64,000 bases of DNA, taken from IMG/VR virus record IMGVR_UViG_3300023202_000336, positions 96,001-160,000 of that record; one strand, given 5' to 3'. Shown piece by piece: positions 11,706-48,654 of the stretch. Under the pieces are notes generated by a model that saw only the letters and a program-made list of their open reading frames with translations, was not told where the DNA came from and ran no database searches. Position 1 is the first letter of the stretch, and the number at the start of each line of letters is the position of its first letter. The position numbers and the translations under genes were made by a program. Origin of the DNA: a virus.

Positions 11706-11777
11706 CTCGTTTATGCTCGCTCAGGAGCTTTGTATCTGAGACTCGGGCGAAATCCGTCGAGGCCCCGTATCTGAGAC
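11706..11777 (+). CRISPR. Degenerate mini-array upstream of the cas12 gene: full variant repeat, 16-nt spacer, 3' half repeat
   Basis: atgctcgctcaggagctttgtatctgagac (11713-11742; 26/30 to array core), tcgggcgaaatccgtc, gaggccccgtatctgagac (11759-11777). Confidence 0.75.
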
Positions 11778-11824
11778 GCATCTGATATCGGAGCCTCGTC
11801 CCACCAACCGCTAAGGAGAACGAG

Positions 11825-13549
11825 ATGCAAAGAGGACGCGATCCAGCGAATATTTACAGCTTCGCTGCATACGTATACCGCGAGGATTACGAGCGGACCG
11901 GCGATATACTGTTCAATGCGAACCGGTTCGGAAACGCGCTTGTCGCGATCGAACTCCACCGTCGCGAAGAGTGCGAGAAAATACTTCGACAGTGCTCGAA
12001 GGATTACACGGACGCGCGCGCCAAGGAAGACGCGCTCGTCGACCACCTTCAAGCGATCGGCAAGGAGCTGGGTCGATATCGCCAAAAGAAGCGTGAAAAG
12101 AAGACGCCGAAGGAGCTCCGTGAAAAGTACACGGAGGTCGAAGGGCAACTCGAGAAGCATCGAAACAGCGTGGTGCTTCCGATCCGCCGGGAGCTCTACA
12201 GGAGCCCCAAAGTCAAGAAGCTCCTGAAGAAGCTACATGAGAAGGTAACCGCGGATAAAAAAGAAGCGCGGGCCAACAGGAACTGTTACTGGGGGACGGG
12301 TGGTCTCGTGGAGAAGGCCCACGAGAATGACGGAGAAGGGCCGCCTCCGTCATTCAAGCGATTCGACGGAACCGGTCGAATCGGTGTGCAGCTCCAACAG
12401 CAGTCAGGAGCTCCTCCGTGGACCCCGGAGCGGCTCACGAGAGAGAACACTCTCCTGATGCTCGATGTGGACCAGATGCCCGATGATTTCGTCGGCGCCG
12501 ATCTGAACACAAGGTACAAGAAAAGTCAGAAGAAACGCTGTCCGGTCCGTATGAGGATCGGTTCGGAGAAAGCCAAGCCGGTGTGGCTCGACTTCATGGT
12601 CAAGTTCCATCGACCGCTTCCAGAAGGCTGCAAGATCAAAGCAGCCTGGATCCTTTTCAAAAAGGTCGGGACGCATACGAAAACGTATTTTCAAACGCAA
12701 GTGGCGCGTCCCGAGGGGTTCATGAGAGACGACGTCGCCGATGGCGGCCATGTCGCGGTCGATCTTGGCTGGAGAAAGTTCGAGGACGACCGGGTCCGCG
12801 TCGCCTACTGGCTCGGAGATGATGGAGAACAGGGTGAGATCGCTCTCGATCCGGAGCTCCTGAGCCGAGACCGGAAGAACCGGTCACTCCAGTCGATCTA
12901 CGATCGACAGTTCGACTCCATGAAGGAGCTCCTCCATGGCTGGATCACCGAGCACAAGAGTTCGGTTCCGGAGTGGCTGAAGGAGGAGACGAAGACCCTG
13001 CCGATCTGGAGATCGAGGTCCCGCTTGGCAAAGGTCATCATCAAGTGGAGGAAACACCAGTTCGACGGCGACGTCGAACTGTATAAAACCGCCGAAAAGT
13101 GGCGGAAGAAGGACAAGCACCTCTTCGACTGGCACAAGTTCCAGGCGAGGATCATCAGGGAAAAGCGGAAGGCGCTTTTCCGAGAGGAAGCGGCAAAGCT
13201 CGCGAGGCGTTATCGCTGCGTCATATTCGAAGATATGAAGATCAGCGATATGGCCAAGGACTCACCGGTGAGCAGCGATGACATGGATCCAATCAAGGAT
13301 ATCATGAAACTCGCGTCGCCAGGGGAGCTTCGAATGGAGTTCGAGAGTCGATTCCGAGACTCCACCAGACAGAAGACGAAGAACACGACGAGAGAATGTT
13401 CGGAGTGCGGTTTCGTTGACGGAGAGTTCGACTTCGTGAATCTGTACCACGAATGCCCGAACTGTCAGGCGGAGAAGGATCAAGATCTCAACGCCTGCGA
13501 GAACCTCCTCGCACGAGAGTTGGGGCCACCAGACGCTTCGGCCGCTTGA
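11825..13549 (+). CDS. cas12: Compact type V CRISPR effector, Cas12m/V-U1-like, 574 aa, RuvC triad D-E-D
   Basis: RuvC-I VAVDLGWR (D313), RuvC-II VIFEDMK (E469), Zn finger CSEC...CPNC, RuvC-III DQDLNA (D554); FKRFDGTGRIGVQLQ and KDKHLFDW motifs recall the V-U1 family; adjacent CRISPR array. Confidence 0.85.
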   Translation: MQRGRDPANIYSFAAYVYREDYERTGDILFNANRFGNALVAIELHRREECEKILRQCSKDYTDARAKEDALVDHLQAIGKELGRYRQKKREKKTPKELREKYTEVEGQLEKHRNSVVLPIRRELYRSPKVKKLLKKLHEKVTADKKEARANRNCYWGTGGLVEKAHENDGEGPPPSFKRFDGTGRIGVQLQQQSGAPPWTPERLTRENTLLMLDVDQMPDDFVGADLNTRYKKSQKKRCPVRMRIGSEKAKPVWLDFMVKFHRPLPEGCKIKAAWILFKKVGTHTKTYFQTQVARPEGFMRDDVADGGHVAVDLGWRKFEDDRVRVAYWLGDDGEQGEIALDPELLSRDRKNRSLQSIYDRQFDSMKELLHGWITEHKSSVPEWLKEETKTLPIWRSRSRLAKVIIKWRKHQFDGDVELYKTAEKWRKKDKHLFDWHKFQARIIREKRKALFREEAAKLARRYRCVIFEDMKISDMAKDSPVSSDDMDPIKDIMKLASPGELRMEFESRFRDSTRQKTKNTTRECSECGFVDGEFDFVNLYHECPNCQAEKDQDLNACENLLARELGPPDASAA

Positions 13550-13556
13550 GAATGTT

Positions 13557-13599
13557 TTCGAGCGGCTACGTCGTCGATAAGATGACGTAGTCGCTCGAA
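13557..13599 (+). terminator. 19-bp hairpin directly after cas12 (terminator or accessory RNA element)
   Basis: ttcgagcggctacgtcgtc-gataa-gatgacgtagtcgctcgaa with two G-U wobbles, followed by gtctttta. Confidence 0.65.
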
Positions 13600-13650
13600 G
13601 TCTTTTATGCGATATTGTTTATATATAAAAATTTTGACAGTACTGTTAGA
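13600..13650 (+). promoter_or_regulatory. AT-rich CRISPR leader / putative array promoter
   Basis: tattgtttatatataaaattttgacagtactgt directly before the first repeat. Confidence 0.5.
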
Positions 13651-14229
13651 TATGCCCGCTCAGAGGCTTCGTATCTGAGACGAGGCGCGTGATCTCGAAC
13701 TCCTGGAGTATCCGCGTCGCTTATGCCCGCTCAGAGGCTTCGTATCTGAGACTGGGGCCTGCCAAACCACGCCCGCTTATGCCCGCTCAGAGGCTTCGTA
13801 TCTGAGACAGCGCTAGGTGAAGGCTGGCGGGGATGCCACGACCGTTTATGCCCGCTCAGAGGCTTCGTATCTGAGACGGATCGTTTTGGTGGTATCCCGC
13901 TTATGCCCGCTCAGAGGCTTCGTATCTGAGACGCCAATCCATCCAGGTACCCGCTGATGCCCGCTCAGAGGCTTCGTATCTGAGACTAGGCGCGTGATCT
14001 CGAACTCCTGGAGTATCCGCGCCGCTTATGCCCGCTCAGAGGCTTCGTATCTGAGACCCGCCTCGAGCACCCGTTTCGGGGGCGTTGATATCCCGCTTAT
14101 GCCCGCTCAGAGGCTTCGTATCTGAGACGACCACGCCTGCCGTCTCCGCGAACTCGGCTTCGCCCGCTGATGCCCGCTCAGAGGCTTCGTATCTGAGACG
14201 CCAATCCATCAAAGCCTCGTACCTGAGAC
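13651..14229 (+). CRISPR. CRISPR array: 9 repeats plus a degenerate terminal half repeat; 37-nt consensus CCCGCTTATGCCCGCTCAGAGGCTTCGTATCTGAGAC
   Basis: Invariant 30-nt core ends at 13681, 13752, 13808, 13877, 13932, 13986, 14057, 14128, 14199; stem CTCAGA/TCTGAG; spacers 34, 19, 32, 18, 17, 34, 34, 34 and ~14 nt. Confidence 0.97.
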
Positions 14230-14248
14230 ACCAACCAAGGAGAAAACC

Positions 14249-14809
14249 ATGCGTTTAGTCTGTGTTCTACTTTTCGTGTTCGGCCTCTGTGCCGAAGAAA
14301 CCTCCAAACTCCCCAGCACCGCCCAGCGTCTCGTCGATCGCCACGATCACGCGCTGGCCGAACTGCGTGAGCGATACCTCGCCGACGTCGCCGACTTGCG
14401 CGAAGACGTCACCCACGACCTCGAGCGGGAACTCAAGAAGACGACCCGTCGCGGCGACCTGGAAGGGGCCCTCGCGATCAAGGAGAAGATCACCGCGCTC
14501 AAGGAGCAAGAGGAGGCGATCGCTGAAGCGCCGACCGATTTCCTCGGACGTAAGAGGCAACCTGAATTCGTCGGAAACACCTACCGATACAGCTCATGGT
14601 GGGTTCGCTTTGATAAGGACGGGTCGGTGAAGACAAACTGGACTTCCCGCGACCTGAGAGACGGTGAATGGAGGATGGAAGGCGAAGAGATCGTCCTCGA
14701 ATTCAACGGGGAAGAGCACGTGAACCGCGCCTTCATCAACGAGGATGGAGATCTGGATTTTAACGGGGCGCAGCTGTTCCGCCTCGAGGAGAAGGACGAG
14801 GACGAATGA
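14249..14809 (+). CDS. Secreted/exported coiled-coil protein, paralog 1
   Basis: Signal-peptide-like N-terminus; LERELKKTTRRGDLEGALAIKEKI; AAGGAG RBS. Confidence 0.75.
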   Translation: MRLVCVLLFVFGLCAEETSKLPSTAQRLVDRHDHALAELRERYLADVADLREDVTHDLERELKKTTRRGDLEGALAIKEKITALKEQEEAIAEAPTDFLGRKRQPEFVGNTYRYSSWWVRFDKDGSVKTNWTSRDLRDGEWRMEGEEIVLEFNGEEHVNRAFINEDGDLDFNGAQLFRLEEKDEDE

Positions 14810-14847
14810 TCCTGATCCTGGATCAGTCGCCAGGAAAGGCGGCGAAG
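14806..14847. repeat. 42-bp exact duplicate of the 5' end of the 15455 gene (truncated remnant)
   Basis: atgatcctgatcctggatcagtcgccaggaaaggcggcgaag is identical at 14806-14847 and 15455-15496. Confidence 0.95.
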
Positions 14848-14882
14848 GCATACGCAGACAACGACCTCGTGGAGGAAGAACC

Positions 14883-15458
14883 GTGCGAATTCTGATGGCT
14901 ACGCTATTCTTGTTGCCGACCCTCTCCCTGTCCTCCGAGGAGGAGCAGGACCCGATGCCCGCGTCTGCCAAACGGACCGTGGCCCAGCACGATCGCGAGG
15001 TGCAGCGCCTCAAAGAACGCTACCTGTCCGACCTCGCCGAAATCCGCGAAGACACCCTTCGCGACCTCGAGCGTGACATGGAAAAGACGACCCGTCGCGG
15101 CGACCTCGAAGGGGCCCTTGCGATCAAGGAGAAGATCACTGCGCTCGAGGAGCAAGAAGAAGAGATCGCTGAGGCACCGACGGATTTCCTCGGGAACGCG
15201 AAGAAGCCGTTTTTTGCTGGTAGAACTTTTAACCATGTGCGCGGTGGTGGTTACCATATCGCATTTTCGGAGGATGGAACGTTGACGACGACGAACTGGG
15301 GCCACAGGTACAACGTCGGCGAATGGACCTTTGAGGACGGAACTATCCACATGGTTTTCGAGAACGGCGGTAACCCACATGAAGCAGAGGTAGATCCAGA
15401 AAACCAGAGGCTCACCTTCATGAACGGTGACGTTTACGTGATCTCGGAAGACAAATGA
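14883..15458 (+). CDS. Secreted/exported coiled-coil protein, paralog 2
   Basis: GTG start after GGAGG; signal-peptide-like N-terminus; shares TTRRGDLEGALAIKEKITAL...EAPTDFLG with paralog 1; different C-terminal domain. Confidence 0.75.
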   Translation: MRILMATLFLLPTLSLSSEEEQDPMPASAKRTVAQHDREVQRLKERYLSDLAEIREDTLRDLERDMEKTTRRGDLEGALAIKEKITALEEQEEEIAEAPTDFLGNAKKPFFAGRTFNHVRGGGYHIAFSEDGTLTTTNWGHRYNVGEWTFEDGTIHMVFENGGNPHEAEVDPENQRLTFMNGDVYVISEDK

Positions 15459-16627: not shown

Positions 16628-16647
16628 GCAGTATTCTTTTGTTGATT

Positions 16648-16677
16648 ATGCCCGCTTAGGAGTTGCGTATCTGAGAC
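16648..16677 (+). repeat. Solitary variant CRISPR repeat (copy B)
   Basis: atgcccgcttaggagttgcgtatctgagac, 25/30 to array core; stem kept via G-U pairs. Confidence 0.85.
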
Positions 16678-16733: not shown

Positions 16734-17378
16734 ATGGCAAGACTGAGCCAAAAAGAAGTCATCAACACGATTCGCGATTGCTACGGCGATTTCGAATCGG
16801 TAAGGGAGGGCGATAACGTCCGGGCCTACATCGGCCCGGATATCGAGGTCGTCGTTCCCCCTGGCGGCCCATTCAAGGACCCCGTCGTGGTCAGCGTTCC
16901 CGAGGAACGTATGCACTACGAGTTTCCGATTACCGCGGGTGGCATCGGCGATGCGGTCTTCTTCTTGAGAAAGAAGACCGCATCGCTGAAGGTCAAAGAC
17001 GGCAAGCGGCTCAAGAAAAACGAGCTGATCGCCCGTCGTGCCCTGTGGATGGCCTTCAAGGCCGCAGTCCCGCTCGAGAGCAAAATCCTCCACGTCGAAG
17101 ACGAGGAGGTGCTTTCCGAGAAGGAGCTGTGGAAGAAGGTGCAACCGAGCAGAACCGAAACGAAGTGGTCCATATTTCTCCGGTACCACTTCGGTCGGGC
17201 GCTCAACCTCAGCATCTGCTGGAACCGGGACGAGGTATGGATCGAACCCGACATCCTGACTCCCGGACGGCAGTCCTGGGTGAGTTCGTACAAGAGTGGA
17301 AGGGATCTCATCGCGAAAGCGATCGAATCAATCCGCGACGAGATCAAGGCACTGCGCGGTGCAGTGATTTTCAGGTGA
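16734..17378 (+). CDS. Hypothetical protein (214 aa)
   Basis: GGAGG RBS; GC3-rich codon usage. Confidence 0.7.
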   Translation: MARLSQKEVINTIRDCYGDFESVREGDNVRAYIGPDIEVVVPPGGPFKDPVVVSVPEERMHYEFPITAGGIGDAVFFLRKKTASLKVKDGKRLKKNELIARRALWMAFKAAVPLESKILHVEDEEVLSEKELWKKVQPSRTETKWSIFLRYHFGRALNLSICWNRDEVWIEPDILTPGRQSWVSSYKSGRDLIAKAIESIRDEIKALRGAVIFR

Positions 17379-22858: not shown

Positions 22859-23404
22859 ATGACCAAGCCATTACCCCTTGATGTAACGAAACTTAGGGAT
22901 TTCGTGATAGAATCAAATACGGTCGAAGGCATCGTCAGAGACGAGAAAACACTTAAGGAGGAGGTAGAAGCTCACGAGCGACTGCTTCGGTGCAAAAAGG
23001 TCGAGGTTCGAGACGTCGTAAGACTCGTGAACACAGTGCAGCCGAACGCTCAGTTCAGGGATCATCAAGATATCCCGGGAGTCTGCGTGATAGCGAGGGT
23101 GCAGCGTCGGCATCATACCGAGACAGTCGTTATGTCCGAACCTCCAGAGAGTGGACCGCTCATCAGGGCCCGTCTACAAGACGTGCTCGATAAAGTCGAG
23201 AGGATGGAGAACGTTTATACGAATCATCTTCTTTATGAAGAGCTTCACCCTTTTACCGACGGGAACGGTCGTTCAGGACGGGCGGTATGGCTATGGCAGA
23301 TGTTGCGTACTGATATACCGTGGGGTTATCGATTCGAGCTACCGTTCCTGCAGAAGTGGTACTATGACTCGTTCTCTATGCTCGCTCAGGAGCCTCGTAT
23401 CTGA
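22859..23404 (+). CDS. fic: Fic-domain protein (AMPylase-type motif)
   Basis: Canonical HPFTDGNGRSGR; AAGGA RBS before ATG 22859. Confidence 0.9.
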   Translation: MTKPLPLDVTKLRDFVIESNTVEGIVRDEKTLKEEVEAHERLLRCKKVEVRDVVRLVNTVQPNAQFRDHQDIPGVCVIARVQRRHHTETVVMSEPPESGPLIRARLQDVLDKVERMENVYTNHLLYEELHPFTDGNGRSGRAVWLWQMLRTDIPWGYRFELPFLQKWYYDSFSMLAQEPRI

Positions 23405-23407
23405 GAC
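23334..23407 (+). repeat. 73-bp direct repeat copy 1 (fic 3' end plus solitary CRISPR repeat C at 23378-23407)
   Basis: 69/73 identical to 23916-23988; repeat C atgctcgctcaggagcctcgtatctgagac is 26/30 to array core and contains the fic stop codon. Confidence 0.9.
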
Positions 23408-23915: not shown

Positions 23916-23989
23916 TCGAGCTACCGTTCCTGCAGAAGTGGTACTATGACCCGTTCACTATGCTCGCTCAGGAGCTCCGTATCTGAGAT
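23916..23989 (+). repeat. 73-bp direct repeat copy 2, containing solitary CRISPR repeat D (23960-23989)
   Basis: atgctcgctcaggagctccgtatctgagat, 25/30 to array core. Confidence 0.9.
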
Positions 23990-47450: not shown

Positions 47451-47594
47451 ATGAAGATGCACCGGACACAGATAAGCCTCCCGCCCGTCCTCTTCGGTTG
47501 GCTCAAAGCCGAAGCTGAAAGAAAAGGAATCAGCATCGCTGAACTCATTCGCCGCGTCTTGGATCGTGAATATGAAGATCAGCAGAAGCAGTAA
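47451..47594 (+). CDS. Ribbon-helix-helix (CopG-like) protein, 47 aa, absent from the ORF track
   Basis: MKMHRTQISLPPVLFGWLKAEAERKGISIAELIRRVLDREYEDQQKQ; overlaps the tnpB start; TTGACA upstream. Confidence 0.75.
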   Translation: MKMHRTQISLPPVLFGWLKAEAERKGISIAELIRRVLDREYEDQQKQ

Positions 47595-48654
47595 GTGCTC
47601 CCTCAAGTTTACGACGGCATCAAAACTGTCGAAACTGGATGTCGTGCTCACCGAGTACGGTCAGGTGGTCAACCGCTTCATCGACCTGTTCTGGGTTGAG
47701 TGCCCAGCCAAGAGCAGGCTACTCAAACCTATCGTGGATTCGGTTGATAGCTGGTTCACTGCCCGTCTCCGTAAGGTTGCTGCTCGTGAAGCCATCGACA
47801 TGGTGAAGGCCGCTAAAGAGCGTTGGGGCGAGAAGGCCGTAAAGCCGACCCACCGTGGACAACGGATGTGCGTCAGTAGCACCATTGCTCGACTGGACGT
47901 TGCCAAGGATTCAACCTTCGACTGCTGGCTGCACCTATCGTCCATCGGCAATGGCATCATCCTCGACCTGCCGATTAAACGGCACAGGCACTTCAACGAT
48001 CTGGCTACTGCCGGTCGTAGGCAAGAGTCTTACATTATCACCAGGGATTCAGTGCAGTTCTGCTTTGAGATCGAAACTGGGCCGAAACAGGAACCGGATC
48101 GCTGTGTCGGTGTTGATACTGGAATCAACGCCTTAGCCAGTTTGTCCACTGGTGATCAGTTAGGCACTGAAATCAAGGTTGGTATCGAACGAATCAAACG
48201 CTGTAAGCACGGAAGCAAAGGTCAGAAGCGAGCCGTTCGTGCGTTGCGACAGCGGATGGATGAAGTCGCCAAAGAGGTGGTTGGAAAAGCCTCGTTGGTT
48301 GCTGTCGAGAACTTGAAGAACATCACGAAGAATACCAAACGCCGCTTGGGTAAAAATATGCGGCGCTCTATCGGTCGTTGGAATGTGCGATACTGGTTGA
48401 CGAGATTGCAGCAAGTCTGTGAACGAAACCGTGTTTCGTTCCGGTCTGTCTCGCCACGCTACACTTCGCAGCAGTGTTCCAAATGTGGCTTCACCGATAG
48501 GAGGAATCGAAACGGTGAGTTGTTCCGTTGCCTCAGTTGTGGCTATGAGGCAAACGCAGATGTGCAGGCATCACGGAACATCCTCACCCGATTCCTTACC
48601 GGACCCTACGGTGCCGGTTGCAAACCTCTCGTGTCCTGTAATGGGATACTTTGA
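47566..48654 (+). CDS. tnpB: IS200/IS605-family TnpB RNA-guided nuclease
   Basis: VGVDTG, AVENL, VSPRYTSQQCSKCG...FRCLSCG...ADVQASRNI; D-E-D triad present. Confidence 0.92.
   Translation: MNMKISRSSKCSLKFTTASKLSKLDVVLTEYGQVVNRFIDLFWVECPAKSRLLKPIVDSVDSWFTARLRKVAAREAIDMVKAAKERWGEKAVKPTHRGQRMCVSSTIARLDVAKDSTFDCWLHLSSIGNGIILDLPIKRHRHFNDLATAGRRQESYIITRDSVQFCFEIETGPKQEPDRCVGVDTGINALASLSTGDQLGTEIKVGIERIKRCKHGSKGQKRAVRALRQRMDEVAKEVVGKASLVAVENLKNITKNTKRRLGKNMRRSIGRWNVRYWLTRLQQVCERNRVSFRSVSPRYTSQQCSKCGFTDRRNRNGELFRCLSCGYEANADVQASRNILTRFLTGPYGAGCKPLVSCNGIL

Follow-up and report, generated by a model that had tools for sequence, protein, structure and literature searches.

A 64-kb stretch of DNA corresponding to bases 96001–160000 of the 180,134-bp IMG/VR virus record IMGVR_UViG_3300023202_000336 (the window, to whose positions all coordinates refer unless stated otherwise; the phage is called G000) carries a cas12m gene followed by a CRISPR array. 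The encoded protein is, by sequence and predicted fold, a divergent but unambiguous full-length Cas12m (type V-M, formerly V-U1). The locus joins a member of this family with the Cas12m fold to an array whose repeats hold the conserved RNA scaffold, and it lies in a phage genome devoid of the adaptation genes cas1 and cas2. The best explanation, to which we assign a probability of about 0.68, is that this Cas12m processes its own CRISPR RNA (crRNA), binds DNA under its guidance and silences the target without cutting it, and that the phage carries it for competition against other elements or for control of its host. A binding role is favoured because orthologues with the same D-E-D residues in the RuvC site bind without cutting, because a back-mutated orthologue is inactive, because the triad of a sister phage reads M-P-x, and because some spacers measure only 18–20 nt. 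Self-processing, binding dependent on a protospacer adjacent motif (PAM) and the lack of cutting are expected for the phage protein by analogy with characterised orthologues.

Identity and fold of the phage Cas12m

The open reading frame and all four motifs quoted in an earlier note on this DNA are present in the translation, and its view of the product as Cas12m-like is upheld by sequence searches, structure comparison and full-length alignment alike. In a phmmer search of the whole PDB the best match was 23vw (E = 6e-47 over residues 43–563), followed by Cas12m2 (1.3e-24), GoCas12m (4e-22) and UnCas12m4a (1e-9), and the alignment to Cas12m extends over the whole protein, including the REC helices. 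The Pfam family Cas12f1-like_TNB also matches the product (E = 9e-7). The structure prediction that the note had proposed as a check recovered the Cas12m fold, which is bilobed and combines long REC helices with WED, RuvC and zinc-finger TNB domains: an AlphaFold2 model built from 23 homologues reached a mean predicted local distance difference test (pLDDT) score of 87, and its Foldseek template modelling (TM) scores were 0.78 to Cas12m2 (8hhl) and 0.76 to GoCas12m (8pm4), with the next families at 0.46 or less (e.g., Cas12f 0.34–0.41, TnpB 0.34–0.38 and Cas12j 0.30–0.35). Cas12f, Cas12j and Cas12n were considered as the closest family and rejected, the values for Cas12f and Cas12j standing against 0.78 for Cas12m2.

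Residue-level features agree with this placement. Close relatives share without exception the four cysteines of a CxxC...CxxC zinc finger (C525, C528, C544 and C547), and H262 and R263, both fully or almost fully conserved, correspond in the alignment to the His-Arg pair in the WED domain of Cas12m2, where His269 and Arg270 read the last bases of the crRNA scaffold (PMC10442227). At the REC arginine pocket of Cas12m2 (R111/R112/R126) the HMMER alignment to the phage protein is gapped and of low confidence. An exhaustive HMMER scan of 1.84 billion representative proteins returned 1,438 clusters at E ≤ 1e-30, among which the best representative is only 37% identical, setting aside a 99%-identical copy of the same protein. 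Judged by sequence, the phage gene is one more divergent orthologue in an already large family.

The gene is phage-encoded, as the earlier note had it. The source genome, an IMG/VR virus, is rated 100% complete and carries direct terminal repeats, of which the exact part measures 127 bp, and the window carries a phage replication module with a DNA polymerase, helicases, a UvsX-like recombinase and SbcC.

The RuvC triad: cutting or binding

Residues D313, E469 and D554 do read D, E and D, and HMMER alignments match them to RuvC I, II and III of solved Cas12m proteins. The step from this triad to nuclease competence, which the earlier note had taken, does not hold, since no state is commoner in the family than D-E-D and four tested D-E-D orthologues showed no cleavage of double-stranded DNA (dsDNA). 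D-E-D stands at the triad positions in 129 of 177 aligned sequences (the query and 176 homologues) and in 22 of the 34 viral homologues; the variants treated here as typical of Cas12m, with its single RuvC-like domain, are D-E-D, N-E-D, D-N-D, H-D-D, N-D-D and H-E-K. D, E and D also occupy the RuvC positions of 23vw, which is the closest solved structure and was named a DNA-binding protein by its depositors. According to Wu et al. (2022), as far as Omura et al. relay that work, Cas12m falls into four clades, of which clades 3 and 4 carry D-E-D (PMC10442227). On sequence grounds, the D-E-D triad of the phage Cas12m is normal for its family.

The experimental record on Cas12m proteins points to binding. 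Of the orthologues that Bigelyte et al. (2024) tested, four with D-E-D, two with H-D-D and two with N-D-D, none cleaved dsDNA, the D-E-D proteins being assayed with a cell-free plasmid library; the D-E-D proteins show PAM-dependent binding of dsDNA and process pre-crRNA independently of RuvC (PMC11013384). The claim that characterised Cas12m proteins have non-canonical RuvC sites is thus right for some of them (H-D-D and N-D-D) and fails for the rest, as D-E-D orthologues have been tested too. Purified MsCas12m, whose RuvC site includes D274, cuts neither DNA nor RNA and has no collateral activity, and its Mg-dependent processing of pre-crRNA survives the D274A substitution (PMC11013384). Moreover, converting the H-D-D site of Cas12m2 to D-E-D did not restore cutting (PMC10442227). 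Because D-E-D is the majority state and its tested bearers did not cut dsDNA, an intact triad is weak evidence for a nuclease.

A natural counterpart is found in G001 (IMG/VR, 179,364 bp), the closest related phage, whose DNA polymerase is 45–55% identical. Its repeat agrees with that of G000 at 31 of 36 positions, and it has three arrays (of 5, 9 and 13 repeats) in addition to about six solitary repeats. The Cas12m of G001 belongs to the same 17-member clade as the phage Cas12m described here (support 0.88), but its RuvC I residue is M, its RuvC II residue is P and its C-terminal motif is degraded (M-P-x). That this lineage keeps the system without a catalytic site favours a binding role, although 15 of the 17 clade members keep D-E-D.

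Array, crRNA scaffold and spacers

The array lies just 3′ of cas12m on the same strand, an arrangement found in 29 of 41 other viral Cas12m loci. Cryo-EM has defined the Cas12m scaffold as a 3-bp pseudoknot helix and a 6-bp stem with a G:A pair and a terminal C (PMC10442227), and the phage repeat has this pseudoknot-plus-stem scaffold, G:A pair and terminal C included. Standard base pairs occupy 94.6% of the scaffold pair positions in an alignment of 31 repeat copies drawn from this phage and from seven other viral loci, compared with 84% in shuffles (none of 500 reached the observed value) and 17–49% in slid controls, and compensatory changes occur in eight of the nine pairs. Rfam has no family for the repeats.

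No anti-repeat was detected, a scan of the whole 180-kb genome for ungapped complementarity of at least 64% giving no minus-strand match; on that scan, the guide of the phage Cas12m appears to be crRNA alone, without a trans-activating crRNA (tracrRNA). The earlier note's statement that adaptation genes are missing from the window can be extended, as Cas1 and Cas2 had no match in the window or in the complete genome under searches that did find them in control genomes; no separate search was made for Cas4. Missing cas1 and cas2 are typical of V-U/V-M loci and not special to phages (PMC11013384).

Spacers 1 to 8 measure 35, 20, 33, 19, 18, 35, 35 and 35 nt, and spacer 6 equals spacer 1 except for its first base. 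Since 17 bp is the optimal heteroduplex of Cas12m2 (PMC10442227), the spacers of 18–20 nt are still long enough. Short spacers are found in other viral V-M arrays too, in which the mode is 35–38 nt.

Candidate targets were sought in several collections. Against the phage's own genome the spacers gave nothing beyond chance 12–19-mers, and IMG/VR contained no exact copy of the 24 nt that open spacer 1 or of those that open spacer 8. Positions 2–25 of spacer 1/6 match, as 24 exact nucleotides, positions 290–313 of the 1-kb metagenome contig Ga0315286_10738790, inside the vapB-like AbrB antitoxin gene of a vapBC-like pair. This match, which breaks off sharply and spans precisely the codons for QEFEITRL, was not counted as a protospacer and may reflect a homologous gene or shared codon usage. 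Read in reverse complement, spacer 1/6 spells RILQEFEITRL in frame, which suggests that the spacer originated in an AbrB-type gene. Positions 1–16 of spacer 1 also match another IMG/VR phage, G002 (180,179 bp), at the PAM-proximal end beside a TTTG flank within an unrelated protein; this match, which spells EITRL, is an unproven lead and may be a coincidence of codon strings. About ten matches of spacer 8 in Planctomycetota genomes were rejected as spurious because all lie in unrelated genes that share the codon string for LRELGF. In the reverse direction, none of the spacers from 11 other arrays (ten viral loci and the Schlesneria chromosome described below) targets this phage genome.

Solitary repeats and a possible role at the RNA level

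The repeat is not confined to the array. A whole-genome scan found 28 full repeat-like units on the plus strand and none on the minus strand (0.3 in shuffles), 19 of them outside the array, together with 12 extra half repeats, all on the plus strand; counted by its 12-nt 3′ half, the repeat has 35 occurrences on the plus strand and none on the minus strand (0.4 in shuffles). Most solitary copies are intergenic, located just past a stop codon and 28–140 nt before a Shine-Dalgarno sequence and start codon, so to say in the 5′ leaders, and in sense orientation, mostly of accessory genes and of cas12m itself. In genome coordinates they cluster at 107–120 kb, 160–180 kb and 1–4 kb. Nine of them have a half or truncated repeat directly after them or within 18 nt, and ahead of several there are duplicated ends of the gene upstream. 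The solitary copies form a sequence class of their own, in which one pseudoknot pair is altered on both sides (GCC/GGC to GCT/AGC), still able to pair, in 11 of 18 aligned G000 copies.

Such a distribution could mean that the main job of Cas12m is done on RNA, with the protein binding or processing solitary scaffolds in the leaders of its own and other phage transcripts, about 20 in all, thereby setting their stability or translation and leaving the array secondary; we regard this as a tentative alternative to DNA silencing. It would account for the one-sided counts of full and half repeats, for the intergenic position of most of the 19 copies outside the array and for the compensatory change that keeps the scaffold, and it fits both the capacity of Cas12m to process pre-crRNA itself (PMC11013384, PMC10442227) and the presence of a solitary repeat in the cas12m leader of G000 and G001, where the G001 copy stands at the equivalent place, ~95 nt before the start. 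The strand bias alone, however, cannot separate a role in RNA from one in DNA, because nearly all genes lie on the plus strand. The genes that follow solitary repeats in G001, cas12m apart, are not orthologues of those that follow them in G000, and the elements are specific to the G000/G001 lineage, with none in phage Rctr197k despite its Cas12m and array. A loop of the CreR kind, targeting promoters, is not supported, since no guide of a solitary repeat has a partial complement within ~650 nt of its copy; the pseudo-spacer in the cas12m leader likewise has no partial target within ~650 nt, and its matches in the rest of the genome are at chance level.

It is possible, though less likely than not, that in the G000/G001 lineage the Cas12m scaffold has spread as a control element by which Cas12m processes, stabilises or represses many transcripts and regulates itself. 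Regulation through the solitary repeats, a plausible minority option, can coexist with either a silencing or a nuclease role of the protein.

Cutting, decoys and a transposon-type protein

Several observations weigh against silencing by binding as set out above. The triad is conserved in 15 of the 17 members of the protein's own clade, and some selected role must therefore exist for it, which could be catalytic. The tests of D-E-D proteins comprise only four orthologues, each less than 40% identical to the phage Cas12m at best. None of the spacers has a convincing protospacer, hence neither target nor PAM is assigned, and the array, with its irregular spacer lengths and duplicated spacers, shows no sign of continuing spacer acquisition.

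A Cas12m that cuts or nicks its target DNA through an intact D-E-D site is, nevertheless, unlikely. Besides the conservation within the clade, it would have on its side that neither the three catalytic positions nor the zinc finger is disrupted, that Omura et al. consider DNA hydrolysis possible for D-E-D clades 3 and 4 (PMC10442227), and that a preprint on myxophage MV-1 suggests the same for the D-E-D Cas12m of that phage (bioRxiv 10.64898/2026.09.14.751636). These points are set against four of four tested D-E-D proteins without dsDNA cleavage and the failure of purified MsCas12m to cut DNA or RNA in cis or in trans (PMC11013384), against the inactivity of Cas12m2 after D-E-D restoration (PMC10442227), and against G001, which has M-P-x where the triad would be and still maintains the entire system.

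The solitary repeats could, in a less probable scenario still, be RNA anti-CRISPR decoys directed at a V-M effector of the host, with the phage cas12m a captured host gene. The chromosome of the planctomycete Schlesneria sp. T3-172 (NZ_CP172346.1) has a 682-aa Cas12m-like gene (H-T-D, 28% identical to the phage Cas12m) followed by an array of seven mutually differing repeats, several of which share the last 17 nt of the phage repeat, the best agreeing with it at 29 of the last 30 nt. This near-identical 3′ segment lends itself to the decoy idea and is a possible clue, from sequence, to the phylum of the host. Phage-borne solitary repeat units are reportedly known as RNA anti-CRISPRs, a kind of element said to have been described by Camara-Wilpert et al. 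in 2023. On the other side, 19 copies within gene leaders are unlike the described decoys, and the phage's own effector would be soaked up as well. The solitary repeats match the phage's own array best, even with a very similar 3′ handle in the planctomycete array, and their sequence class is not seen in the Schlesneria repeats.

That the gene is instead an ordinary IS605-type TnpB, or an intermediate between TnpB and Cas12m as the earlier note had ventured, guided by an omega RNA and not by the array, can practically be dismissed: the weak TnpB matches of the C-terminal RuvC/TNB part and a separate TnpB-like reading frame elsewhere in the window are outweighed by a PDB match to TnpB at chance level (E = 0.42), by NCBIfam scores of 28 bits for IS200_TnpB (cut-off 425) and 24.9 bits for IS607_TnpB (cut-off 350), by the gap in predicted fold, by the alignment of the full length to Cas12m, and by the location of the gene ahead of a true 9-repeat CRISPR array in place of a transposon end.

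Related viral and bacterial loci

Phage-encoded Cas12m is neither new nor rare, as IMG/VR loci, a GenBank phage and a 2026 preprint attest. A single-protein scan of viral contigs found no Cas12m locus, and a profile built from an 8-sequence alignment retrieved 41 from IMG/VR, which are 25–34% identical to the phage Cas12m and in many cases lie on contigs of 150–200 kb. IMG/VR was also part of the Cas12m search of Bigelyte et al. (PMC11013384).

The GenBank phage Rctr197k (KX853510.1) encodes at 112351–114219 a D-E-D homologue with 30% identity, annotated only as ‘similar to transposase’ beside an annotated CRISPR of ~20 repeats. Its record presumably dates from 2016, an estimate that we base on the accession series. 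In G002, fifteen heterogeneous repeat-like units spaced 47–290 nt apart stand beside cas12m at 158.4–159.7 kb, and they are either what is left of an array or solitary units in a row. In the tree, the sister protein is P0156 (D-E-D), which comes from an AT-rich 10-kb Logan contig with no clear array; this contig carries a rIIB-like phage gene, and P0156 is therefore probably phage-borne.

Organisation of the locus

The features of the locus and the solitary repeats within the window are listed in Table 1. A consensus scan called no sigma-70 promoter in the AT-rich array leader. No terminator was seen between the array and the gene at 14249, and the array is therefore probably co-transcribed with this gene. 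The motif half repeat-ACCAACC-AAGGAG is common to the leaders of gene 14249, of cas12m and of the G001 cas12m. The N-terminus of the gene 14249 product resembles a signal peptide. Farther away, in the replication region, a second RuvC/TNB protein matches Pfam Cas12f1-like_TNB (7e-18) and, weakly, OrfB_IS605, with Cas12f/TnpB as best PDB matches (E ~3e-12) over the C-terminal part only; by sequence, it looks like a TnpB-like protein.

Table 1. Features of the cas12m locus and other elements of interest, as positions within the 64-kb window
Feature	Position	Strand	Description or basis
Solitary repeat variant, cas12m 5′ leader	11707..11742	+	6 mismatches to array repeat; both scaffold helices kept, GCT/AGC pseudoknot
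Pseudo-spacer and half repeat	11743..11777	+	18-nt pseudo-spacer 11743-11760; 17-nt half repeat 11761-11777
cas12m Shine-Dalgarno sequence	11813-11818	+	AAGGAG, 7 nt upstream of the ATG
cas12m coding sequence	11825..13549	+	ATG start, 574 aa; PDB phmmer, AlphaFold/Foldseek, Pfam
RuvC-I codon, D313	12761-12763	+	HMMER alignments
RuvC-II codon, E469	13229-13231	+	HMMER alignments
Zinc-finger codons	13397-13465	+	C525, C528, C544, C547
RuvC-III codon, D554	13484-13486	+	HMMER alignments
Intrinsic terminator after cas12m	13556..13600	+	Strong; 20-bp stem, then a T-run
AT-rich array leader	13601..13645	+	Read from the sequence
CRISPR array	13646..14199	+	9 repeats of 36 nt, 8 spacers
Array tail	14200..14248	+	11 nt identical to the start of spacer 5; half repeat 14211-14229; ACCAACC, Shine-Dalgarno sequence, ATG of gene 14249
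Two genes directly 3′ of the array	14249-14809; 14745-15458	+	Two paralogous proteins of unknown function
Solitary repeat	16642..16677	+	15 nt past the end of an open reading frame, 56 nt before the start at 16734
Solitary repeat	23372..23407	+	Whole-genome repeat scan
Solitary repeat	23954..23989	+	Whole-genome repeat scan
Second RuvC/TNB protein	47566-48654	+	362 aa; looks TnpB-like

Proposed mechanism

Silencing by crRNA-guided binding would operate as follows. A working type V-M CRISPR module would be present on a tailed phage of ~180 kb, in which Cas12m is translated from its own leader and the array has a separate transcript, arising from the AT-rich leader behind the cas12m terminator. 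Cas12m would bind the pseudoknot-plus-stem scaffold of each repeat and trim the pre-crRNA itself, with no need for a tracrRNA. The resulting complex would find PAM-flanked dsDNA, open an R-loop of ~17–20 bp and remain bound, thus blocking transcription or replication of the target, probably some competing mobile element or else a gene of the host. The role of the D-E-D residues would most likely be to hold Mg2+ and the displaced strand of DNA instead of cutting it. As a second and less certain layer, Cas12m may also bind the solitary scaffolds in mRNA leaders, including that of its own transcript, for control at the RNA level or self-regulation.

Significance

G000 and G001 form a natural pair in which nearly the same scaffold is associated with D-E-D in one effector and M-P-x in the other, and this pair could help to explain why most Cas12m proteins keep a triad that looks catalytic and does not cut. 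The dispersed solitary repeats possibly represent new biology. If they are indeed Cas12m sites in mRNA leaders, the phage would be using a CRISPR effector to regulate its own genes, and the spread of the scaffold would be a case of such an effector being reused by a virus as a genome-wide regulator. Compact DNA-binding Cas12m proteins are, in addition, in use as platforms for base editing and CRISPR interference, which makes divergent orthologues with possibly new PAMs of practical interest.

Comparison with known systems

Among solved structures, the Cas12m of 23vw (577 aa) is nearly equal in size to the phage protein and shares with it D-E-D, the GWR and DQD motifs and the zinc finger, but it is only distantly related in sequence and nothing about it points to a phage origin. 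MmCas12m2 (8hhl, 8hio) and GoCas12m (8pm4) share the fold (TM-scores of 0.76–0.78), the logic of the crRNA scaffold, 36-nt repeats, the His-Arg pair and the lack of both a tracrRNA and adaptation genes. They differ from the phage Cas12m in their H-D-D site, in being only ~20–22% identical to it and in being encoded by actinobacterial chromosomal genes. MsCas12m and the other tested D-E-D orthologues have the triad in common with the phage protein and are themselves bacterial (PMC11013384).

The nearest parallel in a phage is MvCas12m of myxophage MV-1, which has D-E-D (D305/E463/D555) and an adjoining array of eight spacers, and which a preprint of September 2026 calls the first phage Cas12m (bioRxiv 10.64898/2026.09.14.751636). 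MV-1 resembles the phage described here in having no cas1, cas2 or cas4 (here the search covered Cas1 and Cas2, with no separate one for Cas4), no tracrRNA and no protospacers found. It differs in that its Cas12m has 610 aa, in that it is a temperate phage, known from a wastewater metagenome-assembled genome assigned to Polyangiales, and in that no dispersed solitary repeats are reported for it.

Other families offer partial analogies. Cas12c is likewise a type V effector with an intact RuvC site that silences by binding DNA without cutting (PMC11013384, PMC10442227), although it belongs to another family, is much larger, works with a tracrRNA and uses its RuvC site to process pre-crRNA, whereas processing by MsCas12m is independent of RuvC. 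TldR proteins are compact RNA-guided DNA binders related to TnpB and Cas12 that serve as natural transcription factors; unlike the phage Cas12m, they no longer possess the D-E-D residues, are guided by an RNA of the omega-RNA type and lack a CRISPR array. Some TldRs are borne by prophages. Finally, CasPhi (Cas12j) of huge phages is, like the phage Cas12m, a compact type V effector that a phage carries with an array and without an adaptation module, but it is an active nuclease of an unrelated Cas12 family, with TM-scores of only 0.30–0.35 to the model of the phage Cas12m.

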